Shown here: one piece after another, positions 22,051 to 35,889 of the stretch
How the letters are laid out: each line of letters begins with the position of its first letter
Numbering within the stretch: the stretch's first letter is position 1
Origin: Candidatus Bathyarchaeota archaeon
GTDB taxonomy: Archaea; Thermoproteota; Bathyarchaeia; Bathyarchaeales; Bathycorpusculaceae
Reading direction: 5' to 3'
Assembly: GCA_963717465.1 (NCBI GenBank)
Contig: OY970340.1
Span: 2,464,001-2,528,000 of the forward strand
DNA: 64,000 nt
Translations under genes and position numbers: made by a program
Notes under the pieces: generated by a model
Told to the model about the DNA's origin: nothing
What the model saw: only the letters and a program-made list of their open reading frames with translations
The model's database searches: none

Positions 22051-23919
22051 ATGCAAACGACCCGAATAAACAAAAAAATCGGAAAAAAATTGCAATTAGA
22101 GAAAGGAGTGAAATGCGAATCTTTATTTGAAAACATGCTTGACGGTTTTGCCTATTGCAAAATGGTTTTTGGTTCTCAGGGCAAACCTGTTGATTTCATT
22201 TGTTTGCAAATTAACGATGCTTTATTAAAACTCACTGGAATAAAGAAATCTGAAATACTTGGAAAGAGAGTCATTGAAGCAATTCCGAGAATAAAACAGG
22301 AATACCCCGAATTATTTGAGATTTACAGCAGAGTTGCCTTAACTGGAAAAGCGGAGAAAGCCGAATTTTTCTTCAAGCGGCTAAACATGTGGTTGTACTT
22401 TTCAGTTTACAGTCCAAAGAAAGGCTACTTTGTCGCAATATTCGAGAATATAACTGAGCGTAAAAACACTGAAGCTGCTCTGAAAAGTGACGCTGAACGG
22501 TTTACAGCTTTAGCAAATTCTTTGCCTGAAATAATTTTTGAAACAGACGCGAATGGAAAAACAACTTTCGTAAATCAAATTGCTTTTGAAACTACTGGTT
22601 ACACACAGGAAGATATCAACAAAGGATTTCAAGAGTTGATTGCTCCAGAAGATTTTGAAAAAGCTAGAAAAGACTTTGCAAGTGCAATGGTAAATTCTTC
22701 AACTACAACCAATGAGTACGTGTTCAGTAAGAAGGATGGTAGCAGATTTAACGCGATTATAAAAGCAGTGCCAATTAAATCTAGCAGCAACGTTGTTGGA
22801 TTAAGGGGTATTGTTACCGATATTACTGAACAGAAAAGAATGAACGAAACTCTTGTTTTTCAAAGTCAACTGCTTGAAGCTGTCGGGCAAGCCTTAATTG
22901 CGACAGATAAAGACAATGTTATTCGTTACTGGAATAAAGGAGCTGAAAATCTTTACGGGTGGACCGCAGAAGAGGTTCTGGGAAAAAATGTTGATGAATT
23001 TTTAACGACTGAGGTAATTAAAAAACAGATAACTATAGCCTTGGACCGGTTCCTTTCAGGCGAAAGCTGGTCTGCTGAAATTCAAATTAAAGACCGTTAT
23101 GGCGAAATGTTTCCTGTAATTGTCACGATCAGTCCTGTTTTTAACAAGAGCGGCGAATTCGTAGGGTCGATAAGTGCCTACACTGACATAACAGATCAAA
23201 AGAGCGTAGAGCTTGACCTCAAAAACTACGTTAACGAAAATGCTAAGGCAACAAAGAAAATAAAAGAGTTAAATGAAAAACTCCGAGTAATTGCCAGCTT
23301 AACAAGACACGATATCAGAAATAAACTCGGGGTTTTAAACGGGTACATATACCTGCTCAAAAAACAAATTTCAGATAACGAAATCGCAACGAAGCATTTA
23401 GCTAAAATGGATGAAGCCTCAAAACAATTGCTGACCATTTTGGAATTTGAGAGGGTTTATGAACAAATCGGTTCTGAAGAACTCGTTTACGTGAATGTTG
23501 AAAAATTCTTCGCTGAAGCTTCCGCGCTAGTATCTGACCGCAAAGACATAAATTTTGACTGCAACTGCGAAGGATTAGAAGTATTAGCTGACTCTTTATT
23601 GCGCCAATTATTGTATAACTTAATGGATAATACATTAAAATACGGAGAAAAAACTACTCTAATCACTCTTCATTTCCAAAGAAGCGAGAAGTCCCTTCTT
23701 CTCATCTACGAGGATAATGGAGTGGGAATGACCGATGATGTTAGATCTCATCTTTTTGAGAAAGGCTTTGGCAAAGGAACTGGGTTTGGCCTTTACATGA
23801 TAAAACGCATAATTGAAGCCTACGGCTGGAGTATAGAAGAAAACGGAAAATTAGGTGTCGGCGCCAAGTTTACAATGAGAATACCAAAAAACAAGTTTAG
23901 GCTGAAGAGAGATGTCTAA
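22051..23919 (+). CDS. Multi-PAS sensor histidine kinase, paralog of 12762-14636
   Basis: Same architecture; RHDIRNKL; long shared DNA stretches. Confidence 0.92.
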   Translation: MQTTRINKKIGKKLQLEKGVKCESLFENMLDGFAYCKMVFGSQGKPVDFICLQINDALLKLTGIKKSEILGKRVIEAIPRIKQEYPELFEIYSRVALTGKAEKAEFFFKRLNMWLYFSVYSPKKGYFVAIFENITERKNTEAALKSDAERFTALANSLPEIIFETDANGKTTFVNQIAFETTGYTQEDINKGFQELIAPEDFEKARKDFASAMVNSSTTTNEYVFSKKDGSRFNAIIKAVPIKSSSNVVGLRGIVTDITEQKRMNETLVFQSQLLEAVGQALIATDKDNVIRYWNKGAENLYGWTAEEVLGKNVDEFLTTEVIKKQITIALDRFLSGESWSAEIQIKDRYGEMFPVIVTISPVFNKSGEFVGSISAYTDITDQKSVELDLKNYVNENAKATKKIKELNEKLRVIASLTRHDIRNKLGVLNGYIYLLKKQISDNEIATKHLAKMDEASKQLLTILEFERVYEQIGSEELVYVNVEKFFAEASALVSDRKDINFDCNCEGLEVLADSLLRQLLYNLMDNTLKYGEKTTLITLHFQRSEKSLLLIYEDNGVGMTDDVRSHLFEKGFGKGTGFGLYMIKRIIEAYGWSIEENGKLGVGAKFTMRIPKNKFRLKRDV

Positions 23920-24461
23920 ATTAATCTTTGACAAATATTGCATATTGAAGGAATCAGAAGGTTTAGCATTGAATTCTTTGCTACCTAATTCGAGTTTAGG
24001 CTAAAAAGGGCAGCGCCACATTGGTGTTGAAAAAATTTGAAAAATGCAATTATAAATTAATTAATAACCATAATAATCTATTTTGTAGCACAAATTCGAA
24101 TTAAAGTATAATTTAGCTTAAATATTCTGAATGTCAGCTACTATTTCGCGCTCGTTTACCAAACCGTGCGCTATTCACCTCAAGGTGGTGGCTAAAGGAG
24201 AGCCAAACTCCCAACCTTTAGTCACTACCTTCAATACAATTTTAGCGTTAACACGTTTCAATTTTTATTTTTTCTATTATTTCCAAGATATAATGCTTTG
24301 TCAGGTTAAAATTAGCAAGTTTCAGAAGAACTGTGTTGGAAATATCACTCATACGGAGCATTGGCACTTAATGGAGACGATAATTCTTTCTGAACTTTGC
24401 CGTGACAGTCGGGAACTAAAAAAGAAGTTAAAAAAAGAATATAGGATAACTATTTACTTGT

Positions 24462-24869
24462 CTACTCTGGTAGACCTGGAAATTCGCCTTTAATCTGCTG
24501 ATAAACCTTCTTTAATGGCTCTTCAACTGGCATCATGAAACCCAGATCACCCAGGTCACCCGACAACAGTGACATGGCTCCTTGCGAAAACAACGCGTCA
24601 GCACCCATCTTACCAGACCACCAATCATTTAGGTATTTAAGCTTAAGATACTGAATCGCCGCATTAGCCTCATCAACACTACCCTTATTCACAACCCACT
24701 TCTTACCCTTCGAACCAATCTGCCAAACAACATCAGGAACATCACCAATACTCAACTCAACAATCATGTCATTCTCCTGATCCTTACACGCATCAATAAT
24801 AGCAGGATCATCAGCAAGCTTAGAATACAACTTATACGCGAAATTCATCAACTTATCCTCATAAGACAT
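24462..24869 (-). CDS. SCP2 sterol-carrier-like protein
   Basis: ~135 aa; W..GKM.A..LF.QG.M...SGD pattern resembles SCP2. Confidence 0.6.
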   Translation of the reverse strand: MSYEDKLMNFAYKLYSKLADDPAIIDACKDQENDMIVELSIGDVPDVVWQIGSKGKKWVVNKGSVDEANAAIQYLKLKYLNDWWSGKMGADALFSQGAMSLLSGDLGDLGFMMPVEEPLKKVYQQIKGEFPGLPE

Positions 24870-24953
24870 AACATCTATCTCCTTTCATTTTATATTTTTA
24901 CATGCAGATAAAAAAGAAAAAGAAGAATATTTCTGTTTTGGTCTGCTGCCAAT

Positions 24954-25607
24954 TTAGGTTTTGCCTACGAGCATTCGTGCCTTTTTGATTGCGTCTCCGC
25001 AGTCTGCACCCCAAGTATCAGCCTTAATGCGTTTGCAGAAGTCATCAGTCATCGGTGTACCGCCAACAAGAACCTTGTACTTCTTACGAAGACCACGCTC
25101 AACAAGCGTATCAACGAGTGCTCTCTGATAAGACATACTGCTAGTCATCAAAGCGCCCATCGCAACAATATCAGCATGAACTTCCTCAGCCTTCTTCACA
25201 TAATCCTCAGTCGGAATCTCTTCACCTAAATCATAAACATCAAAACCATCAGTACGCAACATATCAGCAATCAAGTTCTTACCAATACTATGAATATCAC
25301 CAAACGCTGTACCGATAACAACTATGCCTTTTGCCTTTGGCAACTTATCTTTGGGATACTTTTCCTTAAGGTAGTTAACTGCAGCAGTCATCGCGTTAGC
25401 AGCCATAATTACGTACGGCAATGGGTATTCGAAGCGGCCAAATCGGTCACCAACTTCCTTAATGCCAACTGATAGGCCTTTCTCGATAGCGTCCATAATT
25501 TCCAGTTTGTTTTCTACTGCTTCTTTAGCCGCTGCAACAGCCGCATCCTCATTATAATCAATGATTGCTTTAGCGAGGTGTTCAAGTACTTCAGCCTTAG
25601 TTACCAT
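24954..25607 (-). CDS. Methyltransferase cognate corrinoid protein (MttC/MtmC-like)
   Basis: Cap domain plus GDIHSIGKNL B12 motif, GALMT, VGG. Confidence 0.93.
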   Translation of the reverse strand: MVTKAEVLEHLAKAIIDYNEDAAVAAAKEAVENKLEIMDAIEKGLSVGIKEVGDRFGRFEYPLPYVIMAANAMTAAVNYLKEKYPKDKLPKAKGIVVIGTAFGDIHSIGKNLIADMLRTDGFDVYDLGEEIPTEDYVKKAEEVHADIVAMGALMTSSMSYQRALVDTLVERGLRKKYKVLVGGTPMTDDFCKRIKADTWGADCGDAIKKARMLVGKT

Positions 25608-25629
25608 AGATAATCCCTTCTTTGTCTCC

Positions 25630-27204
25630 TTAGAACCTTGCTCCGGTTCCTTTCGTGTCTATTGCATAGCCGCCGATCTGTAGTACTTTGTCGTATTTGG
25701 CTACGATTGAATTCATTCTGTCAGCTACGTCTTTTGGCGGCAGTGGAGCAGGGAACTCCTTAACGATTTTCTGGGTTAGAGCGTATGCGCGGTCATCAAA
25801 GCCAAGTTTGTCTTCAATCCATCGCAAATATTGCCTCAACTCGTATAAGCCATAACCATGGCGCATTGGGAAGAAGCCTATGTCAGTCATGGTCTGTAGA
25901 GTGTGTTTTTCCTTCATGAAGTCGCCTCTTGGACCCTTAGTAAGCCATTGATCGGGCATGAAAGCTTCAGGTGAAAAATCTAAGTCTTTGAAGAACCACG
26001 AAAGCAAACGAAGCACTTCTGCTAGTTCAGTGTAGCCTTCTGGTCTGATTCCGTTTGGACCTACTGTTGTAGCCCAACAGCCACATTGGTCGGTAGCCAT
26101 TTGGAAGGCGTTGAATATGTGGTAAGTTAACATACCAGCTTGTGAGTCTGCGGCAGCTGCTGTGCCTCCCATGTTACATCCTGGCCACATGGTTGCTTTT
26201 GGTGTTGGGTAGTTGTTGTGCCAGAAGCTCACGTGTAAAGCTAATCCTTTGCTGAATTGTTCTTCAGTTCCTGCTAACATTTGTGTGTATGGGTCCATTG
26301 GCATCACTAGGTCGTAGGTCATGTCAGGGATATGGCCTTTCGCGATTCCGCCTTGTCCAAGAGCTAAAGCTACTGCCATTGATGCAGATGCAGCAACAGT
26401 CACTGTGTATGCTCCTGTTATAGTGCATGGACCTTGGAATCCAGGTATGCAAACATCAGTGTGGTCTATAAGTAGAGGTCTGCCTTTTGTCCAACCTTCC
26501 AAAGTTTGGCTCATTCTGTCACTTGTCTTTTGGCCGAAAACTAAGCCTGGTGTGTCTCCATGGTTAGTAATAAATGGTCTCTTAGCGACTTCGTCTAATC
26601 CTCCGAGCACTTCTGCAGCTAAATCAGTATAGCAGTCAATATGATCAATTGCATCAATATGCCAAATGTGTTTGGTAGTGCATTGAATAGTGCTGTTAAG
26701 ATCATGAGTATCCACTGGCAAACCAGCTTCTGCCAAGTCCATAGGCAGGAAAATTGGGCTCGTCATGTCATACTCGGGGAAGTACTCAACAATCTTTTGC
26801 TCTCTCCAGTTGTCAGCGTCAACACAGTCTCTGAATTCATATTGGTGTGTTGCTAGATTCAATTTGGAATATAGTGCCATGATGCCGAAGCCTCCGCGGA
26901 AAACTCTGCCGCTTCCGCATTCCATGAATATGTCGTTGTTTGGCGTTCTTCCTGGCAAAATTTGGTAACTTGGTATTGCATTTATGGCTTCAACTGCAAG
27001 ATTTTGAGGTATCTTTACGATTCCTTTTTTCTCGTCAGCGACGGTGCATCCTAAGTCTTTGTAGACTTTTTGAAGTTTAGGAGTAACTCCTCCCACTCCA
27101 ATTTTATCCAACAGAAACATTGCAGTATTATGGATTGTCATCAATTCTTCTTTTGTTGCTATTGAACGTGTAAATCTTCTAGGTATATTTACTCCTGTTC
27201 TCAA
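25630..27204 (-). CDS. MttB-superfamily corrinoid methyltransferase, no pyrrolysine
   Basis: IH..A..LL.KIG, GPCTITGA, DSQAG, GPRGDF...HT; no in-frame TAG. Confidence 0.8.
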   Translation of the reverse strand: MRTGVNIPRRFTRSIATKEELMTIHNTAMFLLDKIGVGGVTPKLQKVYKDLGCTVADEKKGIVKIPQNLAVEAINAIPSYQILPGRTPNNDIFMECGSGRVFRGGFGIMALYSKLNLATHQYEFRDCVDADNWREQKIVEYFPEYDMTSPIFLPMDLAEAGLPVDTHDLNSTIQCTTKHIWHIDAIDHIDCYTDLAAEVLGGLDEVAKRPFITNHGDTPGLVFGQKTSDRMSQTLEGWTKGRPLLIDHTDVCIPGFQGPCTITGAYTVTVAASASMAVALALGQGGIAKGHIPDMTYDLVMPMDPYTQMLAGTEEQFSKGLALHVSFWHNNYPTPKATMWPGCNMGGTAAAADSQAGMLTYHIFNAFQMATDQCGCWATTVGPNGIRPEGYTELAEVLRLLSWFFKDLDFSPEAFMPDQWLTKGPRGDFMKEKHTLQTMTDIGFFPMRHGYGLYELRQYLRWIEDKLGFDDRAYALTQKIVKEFPAPLPPKDVADRMNSIVAKYDKVLQIGGYAIDTKGTGARF

Positions 27205-27253
27205 TTTTTTCCATCCCTTTTTATTATAGCTGACTTAATTGGTCAGCTTTATC

Positions 27254-27335
27254 GATATTTAAGTTAGATTATAAGCAGTTTTTGTTTTTAGCGACAATTT
27301 GGGATATTCTAACAATTTCCATCAACATTATTGCA
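27254..27335 (-). promoter_or_regulatory. Conserved promoter/operator element, copy 1 (mttB-like operon)
   Basis: + strand TTATA 27269, GCGACA 27291, ACATTATTGC 27325. Confidence 0.8.
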
Positions 27336-27711
27336 AAATAGACAGCTTTTACAAGAAAATGTAGACTTACTATTTTTAGAATATTTATCAAAGGCATAAA
27401 ACAAGCGTAATCATTAATAGGTTAAAACAAATATTTAATTTATAACTTGAACTTTCATCTCAAACGAACCCTTTTTGCTATGAAAATAGCTAAAAAAAAC
27501 TTCAGGTATATGCATCTATTCTAAAGTAAGTCTTTTTTGATTTCTGATGAGGAAATTGCTGCTACTTTACTATTTTCTATGAAGAGAATGTTTTAGCAGG
27601 TTGATGGAAATATTTTAAATATACAAGTAAGCGCTAAAATAATTTGCAAGCGCTCAATTCAAATCTTTTAAGAAAATAAAGAGATGAGTAATTCATCTCT
27701 CATTATTCCAT

Positions 27712-29073
27712 TTAGCCCCAAGTTGGGTAATCAAAACCCATGTCTTTGAATTCTTTTGTCACTTTTTTGTACAGATCTACACATTCCTTTCTAGGTTTCA
27801 AAGTTTCTTGGTCATAGAATTCGTATAGGTTTCGCGATAGCACACTCCAGTCAAATGCCTTCAATGCAGGTGTAAACTTTGTTATGAGTTCTTTTATTAG
27901 CTTGGTTCCTTCGCTTACCTTTGTGCCAGCTGCTGCTCTTGTGAATTCACTTCCGAATTTTGCGCCCAGAGGAGGTGTACTACCGACTTCCCACATTCCT
28001 TCCATGCCTGAGATGCAAGCAGTCATACAGGCTGCTGCTGTTCCGTACCAGTCAGCTTCAGTCATTGGTATGTTTAAGCCTATTCCACTTGAAATCCATG
28101 GAGCTTTTATGTTTCGGTCTGCAGCTAACGCCATTGCCGAGTTAGCCCAGAAAACGTCTGCGCCTACATATACGTTATCAATTGTGTTGGTCATAGCCTG
28201 TGTGAAGGAACCATCTGCATAGGCCATTTGACCTAGCGAGTGAGCCATAGCTTCAAGAACTGCTTCTTCAGGAGAACTGATGTAACCGTACAGTGTTGGG
28301 CTAGTACTCTGCCATGGAACTATTTGGTGTTGCATAGCGAAGTAGGCAAGATTAACTCTGTCAAGAACAAGACGCATATCCTGAAGTATGTGAACTGGCA
28401 TCATGCAGTTTCGGTTTGTATAGTATCCAGGATCAAAAGCGGAGATTAGAGCGATCATGCTTGTTGCAGTCATAGGTATACCCAGTAACATGCCAGGTCT
28501 TCCAGCGGCGCGTGCACCAGCAGTCAACAGTTCGCATTCAGTGTGAACCATAAGTGACTCAGTAGGTGTGCCACCGGTAGGTTTCTGACCAAAAGAGGCT
28601 TCAATTATATTAGGAATCATGCCGTCAGTTGTAGGTTCCCTGGCAACAAGATAAACAGCGTCTCGCCATTGTGATAAGTCGCTTCCCATCCATCCAGCAG
28701 CATTCAAGCAGTATGGATGTTGTTTATCCTCTGGACCTCTAGGACGCATCCTCAGTATGTCCCTGCCTGTTCCCCACTCAACCTCCTGCTTTCGTGTCTT
28801 CACAACTTCTCTGAGCTCTGTTTCAGTGAATTTCACCAAGTGCTTGGTATCCTTGCAGTACAATCCGCATTGGACAAGCAATTGTATGCTGGCTTCGTAG
28901 ATAGCATCAGCCATTTGTGCATCTGTCAAAATTGGTTCGCCATCCCATTTAATCTTGTAATCTTGGACTAACTGCTTTACTTTCTCGGGAAAAAAGGTAT
29001 TTTCAAATTCGTCTTCCTTCATTATTGGACCAGTTCTGGTTCTTTCCAAAACTTCCCACAATAAATGACCCAT
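27712..29073 (-). CDS. MtmB-family (monomethylamine methyltransferase-like) protein, no pyrrolysine
   Basis: CGLYCKDT..VKFTE.E, GTGRD, AGRPGM; no in-frame TAG. Confidence 0.88.
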   Translation of the reverse strand: MGHLLWEVLERTRTGPIMKEDEFENTFFPEKVKQLVQDYKIKWDGEPILTDAQMADAIYEASIQLLVQCGLYCKDTKHLVKFTETELREVVKTRKQEVEWGTGRDILRMRPRGPEDKQHPYCLNAAGWMGSDLSQWRDAVYLVAREPTTDGMIPNIIEASFGQKPTGGTPTESLMVHTECELLTAGARAAGRPGMLLGIPMTATSMIALISAFDPGYYTNRNCMMPVHILQDMRLVLDRVNLAYFAMQHQIVPWQSTSPTLYGYISSPEEAVLEAMAHSLGQMAYADGSFTQAMTNTIDNVYVGADVFWANSAMALAADRNIKAPWISSGIGLNIPMTEADWYGTAAACMTACISGMEGMWEVGSTPPLGAKFGSEFTRAAAGTKVSEGTKLIKELITKFTPALKAFDWSVLSRNLYEFYDQETLKPRKECVDLYKKVTKEFKDMGFDYPTWG

Positions 29074-29108
29074 ATTTTCTCACCAAGACTAATTAATTCA
29101 ACCTGATT

Positions 29109-29190
29109 GCTAATTAAACTAAGTTATAAGCCAGTTTCAATATTTGCGACAAAGAAGGACATTTCAACAATCATCATCGACATTATTGCG
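29109..29190 (-). promoter_or_regulatory. Conserved promoter/operator element, copy 2 (mtmB-like)
   Basis: TTATA 29124, GCGACA 29146, ACATTATTGC 29180. Confidence 0.8.
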
Positions 29191-29366
29191 TGACAGGGAT
29201 TCTTTTTGAGACAAGGTTGAATGAACCTTTTTTGGCTTACTTATATCTTGAGAAAATGAGAAATTTTCAATCAACTAGTTGAATCAACCTTTTTTAATCT
29301 AAGCTTTGCTAAGTTTTTGGAAGATTAAAAAAAGAATAAAAAAAATAATCTTAAAATCTATGGTTC

Positions 29367-29762
29367 TTAGTATTCAACACCGGGTAGTGTTTTTGAAACT
29401 TCGGATAAACGACCCAACGATTTCTGGTGCTTCATTGCCTTCATCATGTTGAGCTTTAGTTTAGCTTTCTGCGCGTTAATTTCGCCTTTGGCAATACCCG
29501 CATGCATAGCATAAGTAGCGGTGGTACCAAATTCTGTTTGTTTGGAACCAAGATCTGCGGCTTTGGCCTCGCTAGCGGTAACTTTTCCGTTCTCAATAGT
29601 TAGGAGAAAAGCTTTCGGCTGCCCATCTGGACCTAGCACATCAGAGAATACATACATGAAATTTGTAGAAAGCGCTGCTTTCTGAAAAGCTTCATCTTTG
29701 TTCATGGCGTCAGCGTACATCTTATAATATTCTATTGTTCCAAATTTTACCAACATATTCAC
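29367..29762 (-). CDS. SCP2-like protein
   Basis: FGT.EY...Y..A.N.D...ENGK...ATY......GEIN pattern; GGAGGTG near start (exact start uncertain). Confidence 0.65.
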   Translation of the reverse strand: MNMLVKFGTIEYYKMYADAMNKDEAFQKAALSTNFMYVFSDVLGPDGQPKAFLLTIENGKVTASEAKAADLGSKQTEFGTTATYAMHAGIAKGEINAQKAKLKLNMMKAMKHQKSLGRLSEVSKTLPGVEY

Positions 29763-29846
29763 CTCCCATAAAACCTTTAAGCAAGAATCCGTTTTTCATT
29801 TTGTTCAACCTGAACGCTTGTTCGTCTTCGATATGAGGTTCCACTT

Positions 29847-29927
29847 AATATTTAAATTGAATTATAGCTTATTCCAATTTTTTGCAACAAAATAGGCTTT
29901 TATAATAAATATTTGCTACATTGCTGT
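29847..29927 (-). promoter_or_regulatory. Conserved promoter/operator element, copy 3 (SCP2-like gene)
   Basis: TTATA 29862, GCAACA 29884, ACATTGCTGT 29918. Confidence 0.7.
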
Positions 29928-30127
29928 AGAAATAATAATCATTTTGGCACAAATGTGCAATACTCCAATCTCTTCGAATCAAAGAACAAGATGAGCTTCG
30001 ATAAAACACAAAAAAAATTGTTAAGACATCTGTTTTGCTATGATATTAAAAAATTATCACTTTCGTGTAATTTAATACGCACAACGATAAATAAAACTAA
30101 AAAAAGAGGAAAGTTTATTGCAAGTTT

Positions 30128-32440
30128 TTATGGTCCGTACGATCCGATGTTTGCTGAGTACACTTTAGCAAGCTGAGATTTGAAATTCCAGGCTCCAAGT
30201 TCAGCGCTAAGATGCTCTGGGCTATCTGGAATTGTGACATTGATATTCCAGTCTGTCCAGCCATAGAGCGTTGGCTCCTCAGCTGGCAATTCAGGACGCC
30301 ACCAACCATGCTCAGGAGACACAATCTTTGGATTAACACCAAAATCATACCGCACCGTCTGCATACACCTACCAAGCGGCGTCTCAATGTAGATCCATTC
30401 ACCATCGCCAATGCCCATGTTACGTGCCGTCAAAGGATGCATTTTTACGCGAGGGACTGGACGCAAATGCCGCATCAAGCTGAGATGTCGATGCTCGCCA
30501 TGCTGAGCCTCTTGGAACCGTGCACCGCTACACAGAATCATAGGATAATCCTTAGCGATGTCAGGCGCACTAATCGGAGTCCAAGGATTCTCGACATAAT
30601 ACGGTATCGGGTCATACTCCAACTGCTCCAGTATGGTGGAGTAAAGCGCAACTTTACCCTCAGGAGTTCCAAAGCCTCTGATCTGTCCAGTCTCAGGATC
30701 AAGCTCCTCATACTTCTTAAATCTAGGTTCATACGGCGGAACACCCTTCCACTCCTTTATAACTTGTTTATGCGTCCAGCCAACAGGCTCATAGAACCAG
30801 TCCGCCATCTCCTCTAAAGTTTTCCAAGGCATGGCTGCGTAAGTTTTGTTCTCGCCAACAACTGCAACTGCCAGATCGCGGAATATTATGCTGTCATCTT
30901 TCAGATCCCACAATCCAGGAATTTTCTGAGGCAGCGCCCGATCACCTGCAATCTCAAACTCAACTGATCCCTGAGTTGAAACAGTCCCATAACCAGACGG
31001 CCTCTCAAACTGACTCGTACCAGGCAACACATAATCTGCAAGCATAGCCTCAGGAGTCATCGAAGCACACTCAATGTACACAAACAACTCAAGCTTCTTT
31101 AGAGCCTCATAAACCTTCTTTATGTTCGCATAACACCTCATTGGACCACATTCACCAGCAAACATCGCTTTAACTGGATAGGGCTTGCCAGTCAAAATCG
31201 TATCTATTGTACTTGGGAAATGTGCACCTACTGGTCCAGCATACCCAGCACCCTTCCAGTATCCTTGAGCCGTCTCTGACGCTTGAATAAGACCACCACC
31301 ACTAAAGCCTCCCATCCTGTATGTCTCGCCGCCTATCTGTTTTCCCCAATCGCTGTTAGTCCCGCTAATTGCTGTTTGGAACGCCTCACAAGCAGTGTGG
31401 AATTTGGGTCTTGCATGTAGGTATTCGCCGCCTTCAATGTCGACGTTGCCAGTTAACGCCGGTAGCATATATTTGGATCGAACGTTGTTCATGGAGTTTC
31501 TACCACCTGATTCAATGGCGTAGCCATATGGGAAAGAACATGGACTATTTTCAACTATGAAGTGAGCAGCTTCCCTAATCTTCTCAGCTGGAATCCAAGT
31601 AATTTCCGCAACCTTCTCAGGAGTGTACTGCTTAACACGTTCTTTTAGCTTGTCAAAGCCAAAGCACCATTTCTCCACAAAGTCATGATTATACAAATCC
31701 TCCTCGATGAGAACATTCAGCATAGCCAGCAAAAATGCAGTATCAGTGCCAGGTCTAATGGCCAACCATTTTTCAGAAATCCGAGCGGTCTCAGTAAAAC
31801 GTGGATCTATGCAGAGCATTTTCGCGCCTCCCTCCGTTGCGGCAACGAAACCTGGCCACGCATATGTCCAAGACTCCATAGCATTATTACCAATATTAAA
31901 TATACCCTTAGTCTTACCTGGAATCATCATTGCGTATGTTAATCCCACGCCATAGCCTAATCCTAAGGCTGAGTACGTGGGTCCGGCTCATTGCTGAGCT
32001 GCAGCCGACGCAAAGTTCGGACTGCCCGCTAACATGTGGAAGAAGCCAAGTCCTATGCCCAAGTTTGCAGCTCGACCGGTGCCAAAAAAGCCGCATAGTG
32101 ATTCGCCACCGTACTTTGCAATAAGTTCCTTCGTTTTAGCGCCTATTTCACTACATGCCTGCTCCCAAGAGATTCTTTGCCATTTACCTTCACCTCGTTT
32201 GCCAATGCGTTTAATTGGGTACATCGGCCTATCCTTATGGTAAATGTACTCTACACTGTATTTCCACTTCTGACAATAAGGCCCAGGATTAAAAGGGCTT
32301 TCCCAGTCAGGCTCAACCTTGGTTATTTTACCGTTCTCAACAGTCTCAAGCAATTGACAAGATCCAGTACTGCAAAAACCGCAAACACATCTATGCAATC
32401 CATCGTATGCTTTTGGGTCTTCAATTTTAGTTTCACTCAT
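30128..32440 (-). CDS. Mo/W-bisPGD oxidoreductase (DMSO-reductase superfamily, acetylene-hydratase-like), 770 aa read through in-frame TGA at codon 151 (probable selenocysteine)
   Basis: The two track ORFs share a frame and are separated only by TGA 31990-31988; N-terminal CGFC...C...C Fe-S motif; IDPR, IRPGTD, DYVLP, GKV.LYS, V...HGWW motifs. Confidence 0.88.
31944..31981 (-). promoter_or_regulatory. Candidate SECIS hairpin just 3' of the in-frame UGA
   Basis: CCCACGU/GCGUGGG lower stem, AGCCU/AGGCU upper stem, G-containing loop UAGGAUU starting 23 nt after UGA. Confidence 0.6.
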
Positions 32441-32491
32441 TATTTTCTCTCCTATTTAACGAATACAAATTTTGATATATGTGGTCTAGTT

Positions 32492-32572
32492 GATATTAAG
32501 CTAGATTATAAGCCAATTTTAGATTTTGCGACAAAAAAGGACATTTCAGTAAATAACATCGACATTATTGCA
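32492..32572 (-). promoter_or_regulatory. Conserved promoter/operator element, copy 4 (oxidoreductase)
   Basis: TTATA 32506, GCGACA 32528, ACATTATTGC 32562. Confidence 0.8.
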
Positions 32573-32649
32573 GAACAAATATTTCTCCTAACACAATGTT
32601 GACCTCACACTTTTTTAATTACTAATGCAGCGTAAAAGCAGAATTAAAA

Positions 32650-32870
32650 ATAACGAAGGCATCCTAGCGGGCAATGGCACAGACAATTCAGTGAGCATTA
32701 CTTTCTCATAGCCTACAGGTGGCTAGAGAAAAGGGGATTGAGCTTCTCTATAGCCACCATCTAAAGGTGAACAGGTTACTTGTTTGACATCCCCATCCCT
32801 GTCATAGCAGAATTCGACCATCAGGCGAATTTTCCTGCTCAGGTTTACCCACTTTAAGTTCCCGTTTTAT
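32650..32870 (-). ncRNA. Candidate structured non-coding RNA of unknown family
   Basis: GC-richer, multi-hairpin stretch with no ORF, between promoter copy 5 and a T-tract. Confidence 0.55.
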
Positions 32871-32888
32871 TTAGCATGAAGGATCATT

Positions 32889-32971
32889 GATATTTAAATT
32901 AAATTATGAAACTAGTTGCAGTTTTTGCAACAAAATAGGCATTCATGTAATTGTTAGCCTACATTATTGCA
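32889..32971 (-). promoter_or_regulatory. Conserved promoter/operator element, copy 5 (upstream of candidate ncRNA, divergent from regulator)
   Basis: TTATG 32904, GCAACA 32927, ACATTATTGC 32961. Confidence 0.75.
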
Positions 32972-33088
32972 GAGAGAATAGTTTTTATCAACATAATTGT
33001 TCAATTTATTATCTGCTCATATGGATATCGGCTTTTGCTAGCATATGAAATACAAAAACTTAAAACTGCCTTGTACATAGTATAGGGC

Positions 33089-33697
33089 ATGAGCCAATTT
33101 TTTAAAAGGCAAGATACCTCAGACATGAAAGTACCTGTAAACTTGAAAGTCCTATTTGCCCTTCTGGCGTTAGGTGGTAAAAGCGACAGGGAGATTGCTA
33201 AAAAACTAGGTATAAACAATTCGACATTATCTAGAAGAAGAAAGAAGCTTGAAGAAGAGGGTTACATAAAAGAGTATACATTATTGCCCGATTTCCACAA
33301 AATGGGGCTTGATATTATCGTTTTTTCATCCTGCTCAACTTCTGATGTGGTACCGACAGAAAATTCTAAGTATGTTCAAGAATTAGTCAATAAAATTCCC
33401 GAAATGCTGTGTCTTTTTGAAGACCATGATGTAGCGGGAACAAACTGGTTTGCCGTAACTGTACATAGGAATTATGATGAATTTGTAGAATTATACAAAA
33501 ATGTTATGGACGAAATAACATCCATGCATTTACATGTGCCACGTGTAGAATCGAAACGCCTCGTATTTCATACGAACAAACTGTATCCAAAACCTTTCTC
33601 ACTGCGACAATTGAATGTTATATTTCAAAACAAGAGAAGTTTTGAGCAACCTCAGCGCAGGAAGCATGACACTAAAATAACAACTGCTGATGCCTAA
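33089..33697 (+). CDS. Lrp/AsnC-family transcriptional regulator
   Basis: SDREIAKKLGI..STLSRRRKKLEEEGYIKEYT..PDF.K.G HTH. Confidence 0.88.
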   Translation: MSQFFKRQDTSDMKVPVNLKVLFALLALGGKSDREIAKKLGINNSTLSRRRKKLEEEGYIKEYTLLPDFHKMGLDIIVFSSCSTSDVVPTENSKYVQELVNKIPEMLCLFEDHDVAGTNWFAVTVHRNYDEFVELYKNVMDEITSMHLHVPRVESKRLVFHTNKLYPKPFSLRQLNVIFQNKRSFEQPQRRKHDTKITTADA

Positions 33698-33875
33698 AAA
33701 GGCTGCCATGGAACCTGCAAGTGAAAAGTTACAAGTGAATTTATAGTAAATACTGTGTTTCACAATACTCCAGAAGAATCGCTTATTCCTAGGATAGCCC
33801 TTTAAAAACAGCATTGTTAAGAAATGAATTTAAGGCTAAAAATAGACTTGTTATTAATATATTTGGTGTCATTTT

Positions 33876-34523
33876 TTGGTTAAAAGAAAAATCGTCAATA
33901 TAGACCCGTCACTCTGCAACGGTTGCGGAGCATGCATTCCTAAATGCGCTGAAGGTGCGCTGCAAATGGTTAACGGAAAGGCAACAATTGTCAAAGAGAC
34001 CTACTGCGATGGGTTAGGCGCTTGTCTTGGTCATTGTCCTCAAGGAGCTATAACGATCACTGAGAGAGAAGCTCCACAATTTAACGAGAAAGAAGTGCAT
34101 GAATACTTGAAAAACAAACAGCAACGGGGAAGCAAAGGCTTATTAATTCAAGACTCTGTGAATCCGCAATGGCCAATTAAGTTAAATCTAGTGCCCGTTA
34201 AAGCTCCCTTTTTTGAAAATGCTGACTTGTTAATCGCAGCAGATTGCGCTCCAGTTGCATTCAAGCAATTCCAGGATAAATTGTTACCAGGCAAAAAGAT
34301 TGTTATTGGATGCCCTAAATTTGATGACGCCAGAGCTTATGCACAAAAATTCTCTGAGATATTGAAACAAAACAATATAGCAAGCATCACAATAGCCCAT
34401 ATGGAAGTGCCCTGTTGCAGCGCGTTAAATTGGGTTGTAGCTAAAGCGTTGGAAACATCAGGCAAGAAAATTCCAGTTAAAGAATATGAGATAACAGTGA
34501 AGGGAGGAATAAATGAGCTCTGA
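33876..34523 (+). CDS. Iron-sulfur cluster-binding protein
   Basis: CNGCGACIPKC, CDGLGACLGHCP, QWPIKL, GCPKFDD, MEVPCC. Confidence 0.85.
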   Translation: MVKRKIVNIDPSLCNGCGACIPKCAEGALQMVNGKATIVKETYCDGLGACLGHCPQGAITITEREAPQFNEKEVHEYLKNKQQRGSKGLLIQDSVNPQWPIKLNLVPVKAPFFENADLLIAADCAPVAFKQFQDKLLPGKKIVIGCPKFDDARAYAQKFSEILKQNNIASITIAHMEVPCCSALNWVVAKALETSGKKIPVKEYEITVKGGINEL

Positions 34524-34770
34524 AGAAAAAAAGTCGTCAGAGAAAAATCCTCAAATATGTCCGGGTTTGAAAGACTTGCTTCAGCCTAAACCATCATATA
34601 TAAAGTGTCATGTTTGCGGTGGCGATTTAGAGATTTGGAGTGATGAAGATAAAACTACGTGCCCCGAATGCGGAGCTGAATGGAAGCGCCCAGATAAAAG
34701 TGGAGCTTGCCTAGAGTACTGTGAACACGCAGACAAGTGTAGGGCAATAATTAACTCAAGAAAGTATTGA
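34513..34770 (+). CDS. Small Cys-rich metal-binding protein
   Basis: CPG, CHVCG...EIWSDE...CPECG, CLEYC...DKC. Confidence 0.7.
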   Translation: MSSEEKKSSEKNPQICPGLKDLLQPKPSYIKCHVCGGDLEIWSDEDKTTCPECGAEWKRPDKSGACLEYCEHADKCRAIINSRKY

Positions 34771-34800
34771 ATAAACAGAAAATTATAGGCAGGTGTATGG

Positions 34801-35889
34801 TTGAACCGCTTTGAAGAAAGACGCAAAAGAACACAAGAATTAATGGTTGAAAAGGGTGTTGCCGCATTACAGGTAACAAGTCGAGAAAACTACTATTATC
34901 TAACAGGAGACATCAGAAACGTTGCACGGTTATTTCTTCCTCAACAAGGCGACCCAACAATAATTGTTTTTGATGAGGAGGTTGAGGATGCAAAAAAGGC
35001 GTCGGGAATTTCAGATGTCAGAGGCTGGCGTACTCCAGCACAACTTATGCAGCATTTCTTTCAAGCAGTAAAAGAGCACGGCGTTGCTGATAAAAAAGTG
35101 GGTTTTTGCATTCATTCTAACCCAGGCTTTCTCGTATACAAGTTTTTGAAGTCAAACTCAAAAATGCAGATTATCGAAAACGAGGAAATTCTCATGCCAC
35201 TTCGTTACGCTAAGGATAACGAGGAGTTGGAAGCAATGAGGAGAGCTGCAAAGGCAGCTGATAAGGGCATTGAAGCAGCAATCGCAGCAGTTAAGCCTGG
35301 TGCAACAGAAATTGACGTTGCCGCGGAAGCCGAGTACGCCATGCGCAAAAGTGGAACAATGCGTTATGGCTCAAGCACATTTGTGGACAGCGGCCCTCAC
35401 TCGATTTATTTGCATGGTGGAACTACGCATAGAAAGATTGAGGCTGGAGACTTAGTGGTTATCGACGTGCATCCAGTCGTAGATATGTACTCAGCAGACT
35501 GCGCCCGAACAGTGGTATGCGGTCAAATTTCAGAAAAGCAAAAAGAACTAATTAAAACATACGACACGATCCAAAAAGCAATTATTCAAAACATAAAGCC
35601 CGGCTGGAAAGTAGGTCAAGTAACCTCTGCCTTTAACGAAGCTTTCACAGCCAAAGGTTTTGGAAACGTTTGGATTCCAGGTCCCGTTCACGGCGTTGGC
35701 TTAGAGTTTGAAGAATGGCCTCATCCAAGCCACTACGGTGGACACCTTCAACTTGAAATCGGCGAAAACTGGACCTTAGCTATCGGCCACAGCATACTCC
35801 CAGTAAAGAACGTGGGCGGAGTAAAACTTGAAGACACAATACAAATTACTCCAGATGGCGGAAAAAGCCTAACTCAAGCGCCAACATAG
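34801..35889 (+). CDS. M24-family peptidase/amidohydrolase
   Basis: Creatinase-like N-domain (ENYYYLTG), ADCART, HGVGLEFEE, GGVKLED. Confidence 0.85.
   Translation: MNRFEERRKRTQELMVEKGVAALQVTSRENYYYLTGDIRNVARLFLPQQGDPTIIVFDEEVEDAKKASGISDVRGWRTPAQLMQHFFQAVKEHGVADKKVGFCIHSNPGFLVYKFLKSNSKMQIIENEEILMPLRYAKDNEELEAMRRAAKAADKGIEAAIAAVKPGATEIDVAAEAEYAMRKSGTMRYGSSTFVDSGPHSIYLHGGTTHRKIEAGDLVVIDVHPVVDMYSADCARTVVCGQISEKQKELIKTYDTIQKAIIQNIKPGWKVGQVTSAFNEAFTAKGFGNVWIPGPVHGVGLEFEEWPHPSHYGGHLQLEIGENWTLAIGHSILPVKNVGGVKLEDTIQITPDGGKSLTQAPT

Follow-up and report, generated by a model that had tools for sequence, protein, structure and literature searches.

Layout of the locus

The window analysed here is a stretch of 64,000 nucleotides (bases 2,464,001-2,528,000) of the single 3.05-Mb contig of a Candidatus Bathyarchaeota archaeon, an archaeal host marked by ribosomal proteins S19e and S25e, SepSecS and PSTK. 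Positions 24462-33697 hold a cluster of corrinoid-dependent methyltransferase genes and their partners. Read from upstream to downstream, the minus strand carries a non-coding unit, a gene for a Mo/W enzyme of the bis(pyranopterin guanine dinucleotide) (bisPGD) type, the small gene SCP2b, an MtmB-like methyltransferase gene, and a run of three genes encoding an MttB-like methyltransferase, a corrinoid protein and SCP2a. A winged-helix regulator gene is divergent on the plus strand at 33089-33697. An initial annotation, made from the sequence letters and a list of open reading frames (ORFs), had placed six minus-strand genes and the non-coding unit here. Pfam matches and a reading of the ORFs confirm these features, and the gene identities given were correct, including an SCP2 call that Pfam misses and that fold comparison recovers. 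The interpretation attached to them is, as a whole, partly supported.

A T run lies 3' of every transcription unit in the cluster. The 84-nt gap between the corrinoid protein gene and SCP2a also contains T runs, so the operon boundary at this point is uncertain. A look-up of RNA runs for positions 24000-33700 listed none.

Shared promoter element and probable regulon

The five minus-strand units carry a common upstream element, as had been proposed. The five copies align over 163 columns, 36 of them invariant, and nhmmer on the whole genome finds them with E values of 5e-20 to 1.9e-13. An 83-nt model was obtained by iterating nhmmer for two rounds; copies were counted at E <= 0.01, and the E values of single copies given below refer to this iterated model. 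The element precedes the MttB-like gene (27254-27335, E = 1.3e-12), the MtmB-like gene (29110-29190, E = 2.2e-14), SCP2b (29848-29926, E = 3e-6), the Mo/W enzyme gene (32496-32572, E = 8.8e-15) and the non-coding unit (32889-32971, E = 1.1e-10), in each case on the minus strand. A partial sixth copy, absent from the earlier list, is located on the plus strand at 24072-24125 before a second hairpin RNA; it matches model positions 29-82 (E = 0.0091) and has the 3' boxes only. The element consists of four conserved parts, which are discrete boxes with variable spacers. The first is TGCAATAATGT, followed after about 25 variable bases by the near-palindrome TTTTGTGGCAAAA. The third is GCTTATAAT and the fourth is AACTTAAATATC, which resembles a TATA region.

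The genome contains 43 copies of the element at about a dozen loci, so the cluster in the window is not self-contained as had been claimed. Eight copies precede genes of the Mo/W-selenocysteine (Sec) enzymes, six precede MttB-like genes, two MtmB-like genes, three SCP2b genes and three the genes of a 575-aa KstD-like flavoprotein. An OYE/Pyr_redox gene, a gene of the 221-aa corrinoid protein type and an Lrp gene have one copy each, and ten copies precede hairpin RNAs. The other eight stand before a short-chain dehydrogenase/reductase (SDR) gene, a probable SDR gene at 133.5 kb (recognised from its N-terminus), a CrtC-like lipocalin gene, an HdrC-like gene, a 111-aa ORF, an MttB-like remnant and two unclear features. 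The SDR and CrtC-like lipocalin genes belong to the predicted regulon. Frameshift-split regulon genes (two MtmB-like, one OYE, one SDR and one MttB-like) are found at 1222194-1223556, 2172717-2173670, 1213852-1215874, 1218043-1218833 and 1121408-1122979.

None of the 43 genome copies precedes a housekeeping gene. The initial annotation had set its regulon idea against the possibility of an element that stands genome-wide before unrelated genes; the copies occur only in loci of one gene set, and the idea survives because no copy precedes a housekeeping gene. The 43 promoters likely form one species-specific regulon. We infer its substrate, the co-expression of its genes and the binding of its regulators from sequence.

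The element could also be a mere promoter cassette that spread with duplicated DNA and confers no common regulation, in which case the genes would be decaying paralogues acquired horizontally. The families are heavily duplicated, several copies are frameshifted and no member of the gene set turned up in the relatives searched, all of which would suit such a history. However, the element precedes at least nine unrelated gene families as well as RNAs, and not only paralogues. Its conservation is box-like with free spacers, regulator paralogues stand beside nearly every locus, and the corrinoid protein is under strong purifying selection. A cassette of this kind is therefore very unlikely to explain the pattern, and the reading as a regulon is preferred.

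Methyltransferases, corrinoid protein and predicted SCP2-fold proteins

The MttB-like gene (25630-27204, minus strand) encodes a 524-aa member of the MttB superfamily without pyrrolysine (Pyl), which matches PF06253 with 56.5 bits against a cut-off of 25 over profile positions 33-494. Only its first 200 residues align with the solved MttB 7xcm. Among 1.84 billion cluster representatives it has two relatives at E <= 1e-30 (52% and 32% identity), and its identity to the other 50%-identity clusters does not exceed 32%, with one exception. By these comparisons, the protein belongs to a very isolated subfamily. The genome has nine copies, of which at least one is disrupted. The gene order MttB-like, corrinoid protein, SCP2a recurs at five loci (the window and four others), and the MttB-like proteins are 68-81% identical and so differ by 19-32%.

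The corrinoid (B12-binding) protein (24954-25607, minus strand, 217 aa) contains PF02310 and PF02607. It is present at six loci (the window and 120.2, 128.3, 747.1, 1123.0 and 1207.9 kb) with an amino acid identity of 99-100% and a DNA identity of 83-97%. Recent gene conversion was rejected as the source of these identical proteins, since the DNA differs by 3-17% at a protein identity of 99-100%. The protein is under strong purifying selection as a common partner. The near-constant corrinoid protein and the diverged MttB-like proteins therefore fit an arrangement in which one corrinoid partner serves many substrate-specific first methyltransferases (MT1s).

The MtmB-like gene (27712-29073, minus strand) encodes a 453-aa MtmB-family methyltransferase without Pyl (PF05369, 156.2 bits). 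In the alignment with 1l2q (Methanosarcina barkeri MtmB, E = 2e-35) the Pyl position corresponds to Gly. The MttB-like and MtmB-like ORFs are both uninterrupted, with no in-frame UAG. The best PylS match in the genome has 31 bits (cut-off 178), and the ARAGORN output for the genome contains no tRNA with anticodon CTA. The earlier description of the two enzymes as Pyl-free holds on the intact ORFs, the Gly residue, the lack of PylS above cut-off and the lack of such a tRNA.

The nearest loci elsewhere for the MtmB-like gene are on four contigs of Dehalococcoidia metagenome-assembled genomes (MAGs), at 51-53% identity. A corrinoid protein gene lies 3' of the MtmB-like gene in all four (36 of 46 ORFs scanned), and its product is 61-62% identical to the 221-aa type of the present genome. 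One of the four (L020) continues with an acetylene-hydratase-like (AH-like) Mo enzyme at 35% identity, and one of the four holds an OYE-type gene. The cluster labels of these relatives read only 'monomethylamine:corrinoid methyltransferase', with no EmtA or AbeA label. The genome has five MtmB-like paralogues, of which the one at 1219-1223 kb has beside it a 221-aa MtmC-like corrinoid protein gene (1219 kb) and a KstD-like gene. A second public assembly encodes an MtmB-like protein that is at least 90% identical, on a contig of 75,912 nt. A 77% identical homologue of SCP2b is also on a contig of 75,912 nt; if both are one contig, the genes co-occur elsewhere.

The initial annotation had expected the second methyltransferase (MT2) and the corrinoid activase to be encoded outside the window. 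Genes of the URO-D/MtaA-like, MtrH-like and RamA/RACo types are indeed found at 744-754 kb, 1649-1657 kb and 2821 kb, and the genome has four strong URO-D/MtaA-like genes, MtrH-like genes and five RACo/RamA genes. One MttB-like cassette adjoins an MtaA-like gene back to back and has MtrH, corrinoid protein and RACo genes at a distance of 3 kb; a second cassette has a RACo gene 4 kb away (scan of 48 out of 52 ORFs).

The two small proteins are SCP2a (24462-24869, minus strand, 135 aa), encoded by the last gene of the MttB-like/corrinoid unit, and SCP2b (29367-29762, minus strand, 131 aa), which has its own unit. Neither matches the Pfam SCP2 family (PF02036), even at an E value of 10. AlphaFold (AF2) models have a predicted local distance difference test score (pLDDT) of 92.3 for SCP2a (alignment of 12 relatives) and 92.7 for SCP2b (alignment of 16 relatives). 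The top Foldseek matches of the SCP2a model are the solved SCP2 proteins 1wfr, 4jgx and 1c44 (best E = 9.5e-6, TM score about 0.6), and those of the SCP2b model are the SCP2 proteins 1wfr and 2cx7 (E = 1.7e-7, TM score 0.67). Both proteins are therefore predicted to have an SCP2 fold. The SCP2b family is small, with 18 proteins of which five are in this genome. Metagenome contigs scanned with the SCP2a alignment and with the MttB-like alignment yielded no related locus.

These proteins could serve the demethylation of amphiphilic quaternary amines, for example choline- or carnitine-type lipids, which would agree with the chemistry known for non-Pyl homologues of MttB and MtmB. SCP2-fold carriers suit amphiphiles, the non-Pyl MttB member MtgB is reported to demethylate glycine betaine (PMC13044021, PMC13080624), and the non-Pyl MtmB homologue MtqB is reported to use tetramethylammonium and choline (PMC13044021). 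The MttB-like protein speaks against this assignment by its isolation, with identities of no more than 32% to the other clusters except one, and by an alignment with solved MttB that covers its N-terminal 200 residues only. In addition, the KstD-like, OYE and W/Mo-Sec redox enzymes have no role in known quaternary-amine pathways. A regulon for such amines is decidedly unlikely.

Mo/W enzyme and probable selenocysteine

The Mo/W enzyme gene (30128-32440, minus strand, 770 codons) encodes an AH-like Mo/W-bisPGD enzyme of the cytoplasmic type with the Pfam domains Fe4S4, Molybdopterin and Molydop_binding. Its best solved match is acetylene hydratase 2e7z (E = 8.9e-108, full length). An in-frame TGA at codon 151 (31988-31990, minus strand) aligns with the W-ligand Cys of acetylene hydratase and is likely a Sec codon. 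The initial annotation had proposed a candidate selenoenzyme, and the alignment with 2e7z confirms that the TGA is at the metal-ligand position. In the HMMER alignment, the window enzyme has Ser where acetylene hydratase has its catalytic Asp beside the second cluster Cys. The label of a true acetylene hydratase was rejected on account of the TGA in place of the Cys ligand, the change of Asp to Ser and the different gene context.

The genome contains ten close paralogues of this enzyme, the window one included, and two distant homologues. Nine of the ten and one of the distant homologues have a TGA at the same codon. The tenth close paralogue is frameshifted upstream of the TGA codon, and three of the ten are broken genes. 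A hairpin that starts 6 nt after the TGA (31944-31981, minus strand) is conserved in 10 of 10 homologues folded with RNAalifold and is a candidate coding-region selenocysteine insertion sequence (SECIS). One of its pairs changes from U-A to C-G through two synonymous Leu codon changes. The 3' untranslated regions of the Mo/W genes terminate in T runs at most about 30 nt past the stop codon and leave no room for a SECIS.

The Sec machinery of the genome comprises two tRNA-Sec genes, SepSecS (489 bits) and one ORF that joins PSTK and SelB domains. This ORF (730 aa, KTI12 for PSTK and GTP_EFTU, D2 and aSelB_III for SelB) is at genome positions 2827363-2829555 on the minus strand, 83 nt downstream of the second tRNA-Sec. 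The second tRNA-Sec itself lies 3' of CxxCxxCC, HdrB-like and HdrC-like genes, the first of which has a partial regulon promoter (E = 0.0055); the Sec machinery may be co-regulated with the selenoenzymes. Another copy of the element (849834-849912, minus strand, E = 1.1e-11) is 0.9 kb upstream of a three-gene minus-strand run that ends in SepSecS, beside the first tRNA-Sec. An HTH_10 gene on the opposite strand sits between this copy and the SepSecS run.

Lrp/AsnC-type regulators

The divergent gene at 33089-33697 (plus strand) encodes a 202-aa regulator with a Pfam HTH_24 match and is one of about 20 paralogues in the genome. The initial annotation had assigned it to the Lrp/AsnC type. The Pfam model of the AsnC helix-turn-helix (HTH) scores 17.6 bits, below its cut-off of 27. 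A profile of 11 regulator paralogues supports the assignment, since it matches solved Lrp/AsnC proteins (LrpC 2cfx, E = 9e-9, and 2efo, residues 16-151), and some of the solved matches span both the HTH and the following domain. A tblastn search with the Lrp-like protein gives 22 matches in the genome, of which 20 are within about 3 kb of a gene of a regulon family. Each Lrp paralogue is predicted to sense one substrate and to bind the two upstream boxes of the element.

Hairpin RNAs

The non-coding unit is a hairpin RNA of about 235 nt (type A, 32635-32885, minus strand) with a closing stem at about 32718-32758 and a T-run end. A second RNA, absent from the earlier list, is of type B (24126-24262, plus strand) with a 12-bp closing stem at about 24187-24226; BLAST finds three more copies of it in the genome. 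A common hairpin unit, in which a 12-bp closing stem pairs GGUGGCUAYAGG with CCURUAGCCACC, is present in ten or more RNAs that follow full or partial copies of the element. The motif UUCACCU-NN-AGGU is found just 5' of the stem and A(A/C)UCCC in the apical part. In seven copies 88% of the cells pair, compared with 33-52% for slid partners. Three of the 12 pairs have changes on both sides, and the covariation score was reached by one of 500 shuffles. These pairing figures are lowered because the 2793-kb row is misaligned through a deletion.

Indels of 1-2 nt distinguish the hairpin RNA copies from one another and speak against a coding role. Most copies stand alone with a T-run terminator, and three are gene leaders, including those of an SDR and a CrtC-like gene. 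A search of positions 24300-33200 against Rfam gave no family; the sole match was a chance-level one to sraA (E = 3.6). The whole 261-nt non-coding stretch, when folded, shows no unusual stability (z = -0.98). The signal is in the conserved hairpin unit and not in the whole RNA. A 120-aa ORF at 24131-24493 (plus strand) has no Pfam match and shares bases with both the second hairpin RNA and the 3' end of SCP2a; it is unlikely to be a gene.

Neighbouring genes

Upstream of the cluster is a PAS histidine kinase gene (22051-23919, plus strand) without the shared element. Positions 33876-35889 (plus strand), 3' of the regulator, contain two genes without the element, one for a 215-aa ferredoxin-like protein that lacks paralogues in the genome and one for an M24 (creatinase/prolidase-type) peptidase.

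Distribution among relatives

The Mo/W enzyme was found in none of 30 relatives, 18 of them from the same genus, and none of these 30 has SepSecS above cut-off. The MttB family and the hairpin RNA were each absent from 60 genomes of the same genus, and a close MtmB-like protein from 331 genomes of the same family. An AH-like gene is present in 52 of 400 other genomes of the class. The matches that run over the full length reach only 35-43% identity, and none has a stop codon at the ligand position.

This distribution bears on the possibility that the regulon serves methoxylated aromatics derived from lignin. The MttB-like and MtmB-like proteins would then work as O-demethylases. Their demethylated products would serve as electron acceptors for the AH-like W/Mo-Sec enzymes, which would act as catechol or phenol dehydroxylases. 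Catechol dehydroxylases are reported as the nearest relatives of acetylene hydratase among bis-MGD (molybdopterin guanine dinucleotide) enzymes (PMC7028382), and acetylene hydratase is the best solved match of the window enzyme. The OYE-type enzymes are matched best, among solved structures, by a dearomatising aryl-CoA reductase (NCR, 6qkg), and Bathyarchaeia are reported to use lignin methoxy groups (PMC10989822). On the other hand, the known O-demethylase MT1s are of other families. The Bathyarchaeial lignin MT1, also named MtgB, was rejected as a relative; it has about 300 aa and is described as having no homology to known MT1s (PMC10989822). Since the MtmB-like and MttB genes are missing in the searched relatives, the system is not the general lignin system of the lineage. 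The KstD-like, SCP2 and CrtC-like genes would also be left unexplained. A lignin-related function is therefore unlikely.

Proposed function

The reading preferred here, tentatively and at a little short of an even chance, is a species-specific regulon through which corrinoid-dependent enzymes demethylate hydrophobic compounds. By analogy with the bacterial EmtAB and AbeABC systems, these compounds are probably steroid- or terpenoid-like, and the regulon is predicted to be under the control of the Lrp paralogues. The 575-aa flavoprotein has a 3-oxosteroid 1-dehydrogenase (7p18, E = 1.2e-82) as its best solved match, and its gene immediately precedes an MtmB-like gene at two loci, 1220-1223 kb and 2802-2805 kb. 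The two SCP2-fold families, the CrtC-like, SDR and OYE proteins and, above all, this KstD-like flavoprotein point to a greasy polycyclic substrate. The initial annotation had suggested a methylated amphiphilic or aromatic substrate; a hydrophobic or aromatic one stays plausible, and the suggestion is sharpened by the KstD-like genes in an operon with MtmB-like genes. We infer that demethylation may be coupled to Mo/W-selenium chemistry.

In the proposed mechanism, the enzymes would receive the greasy substrate from the SCP2-fold proteins. The MttB-like and MtmB-like proteins would act as MT1s and transfer the methyl group to cob(I)amide on the corrinoid protein, the 217-aa type pairing with the MttB-like and the 221-aa MtmC-like type (1219 kb) with the MtmB-like enzymes. 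An MtaA-like or MtrH-like MT2 would pass the methyl group on, likely to tetrahydromethanopterin, and RamA-type activases would rescue oxidised corrinoid. At the two sister loci, the KstD-like flavoprotein may first make a dienone, from which loss of the angular methyl group could be driven by aromatisation, as in bacterial AbeABC. The OYE-like and SDR enzymes may be reductive sinks, and the AH-like W/Mo-Sec enzyme might act on the ring product by hydration or dehydroxylation. This last assignment is a guess, and so are the substrates of the nine MttB-like enzymes. In its fullest form, the proposal is that an archaeon would C-demethylate and aromatise steroid- or terpenoid-like lipids in an anaerobic, B12-dependent process, an archaeal counterpart of the bacterial 'estrogenesis without oxygen', with the methyl groups entering the one-carbon (C1) pathway. 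It would include about ten W/Mo-Sec ring-modifying partners in one regulon of 43 promoters, about 20 substrate-sensing Lrp proteins and new hairpin RNAs, acquired together with the Sec machinery by a single species. That complete scenario is rather unlikely to hold in every part.

Several points weigh against a steroid-like substrate and a common regulon. The KstD-like, OYE and SDR families also act on non-steroid substrates. The window MtmB-like gene has no adjoining KstD-like or 221-aa corrinoid protein gene, and its presumed likeness to AbeA and EmtA is drawn from published descriptions of these proteins. MtqB, described as the only other non-Pyl MtmB with a shown function, is reported to demethylate tetramethylammonium and choline (PMC13044021). 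The element is not detectable at three of the nine MttB-like and two of the ten Mo/W-Sec paralogues, and the common promoters of paralogues can partly stem from common descent. Frameshifted copies include three Mo/W, two MtmB-like and at least one each of OYE, SDR and MttB-like genes; the gene family is turning over. Elsewhere in the class, methyltransferase or corrinoid protein genes stand beside none of the AH-like genes of about 40% identity at seven loci (46 nearest of 83 ORFs scanned). Those AH-like genes adjoin aldehyde oxidoreductases, with aldehyde:ferredoxin oxidoreductase at two of the seven, and acetylene hydration is a possible role of the Mo/W enzyme.

At loci L040 (G315:C35) and L041 (G049:C7), which belong to other genomes of the class, Cys-type AH-like genes of about 40% identity adjoin genes for aldehyde:ferredoxin oxidoreductase, Fe-alcohol dehydrogenase and acetyl-CoA synthetase. 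This layout is that expected of a true acetylene-to-acetate route.

Corrinoid-dependent removal of C-bound methyl groups from steroids has so far been reported in few bacteria, and the genes are described as rare (PMC11912376). An archaeal version, if true, would add to the known sinks of lipids buried in anoxic sediments and would supply testable candidates for new MT1 substrate classes. The MttB-like subfamily is almost without relatives in the cluster representatives searched. The locus is also a compact model of archaeal regulation, in which one long promoter-operator occurs 43 times and the regulators and RNAs have expanded to match. In addition, the selenoenzymes and Sec-decoding genes are present in one species and in none of the 30 relatives searched.

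Comparison with known systems

A search of literature full text found no paper that joins Bathyarchaeia, steroids and a cobalamin-dependent methyltransferase. The closest described systems, which serve the cobalamin-dependent (de)methylation of steroids at C-10, are AbeABC of Phosphitispora sp. TUW77 and EmtABCD of Denitratisoma sp. DHT3, in which an MtmB-like MT1 without Pyl is likewise joined by an MtmC-like corrinoid protein (PMC11912376, 10.1101/714501). The estradiol methyltransferase EmtA is reported to have MtmB as its closest family, at about 30% identity, and EmtB to be closest to MtmC (10.1101/714501). AbeA and EmtA are described as MtmB-like steroid C-10 methyltransferases that cluster with MtmB (10.1101/714501, PMC11912376). 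Several paralogous gene copies are a further likeness. Under the proposed mechanism, the need for a 3-oxosteroid-1-dehydrogenase and for reductive steroid sinks would be another, as would the passage of the methyl group to a C1 carrier and the Wood-Ljungdahl pathway. The AbeABC reaction is reported to require the dehydrogenase, and its strain to reduce further testosterone as an electron sink (PMC11912376). The nearest uncultured homologues are in sediment MAGs of Chloroflexota in both cases, the nearest homologue of AbeA being reported from a Chloroflexota marine-sediment MAG (PMC11912376). In contrast to both systems, the host here is an archaeon, and the window locus is without its own dehydrogenase or MtmC-like gene. 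The present system adds nine divergent MttB-like MT1 genes, SCP2-fold proteins and ten AH-like W/Mo-Sec enzymes, as well as about 20 Lrp paralogues, the shared 83-nt promoter element and the hairpin RNAs.

MtqBC of Methanococcoides methylutens Q3c, and MtgB and its relatives, are also non-Pyl MtmB or MttB members that are each paired with a corrinoid protein (PMC13044021). They differ in their small quaternary-amine substrates and are not known to be linked to SCP2 proteins, flavoproteins or W/Mo enzymes. The window MttB-like protein, for its part, is at most 32% identical to nearly all other clusters of the family.

The Mo/W enzyme has in common with acetylene hydratase 2e7z and with the catechol dehydroxylases of Eggerthella and Gordonibacter an N-terminal 4Fe-4S motif, the cytoplasmic single-subunit type and the same metal-ligand position. 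It differs from acetylene hydratase in its TGA (likely Sec) in place of the Cys ligand and in its Ser in place of Asp, and from AH-like enzymes in its link to methyltransferases and OYE enzymes instead of aldehyde oxidoreductases. The regulator resembles archaeal Lrp/AsnC proteins in its N-terminal winged helix followed by a small alpha/beta domain and in the profile matches to solved members. Unlike typical members, it is about 50 residues longer and scores below the cut-offs of the Pfam family models, and its family has grown to about 20 paralogues that accompany a single gene set. Taken together, the system is best filed among the corrinoid methyltransferase systems, as a variant with an unusual regulatory layout and selenoenzyme partners.

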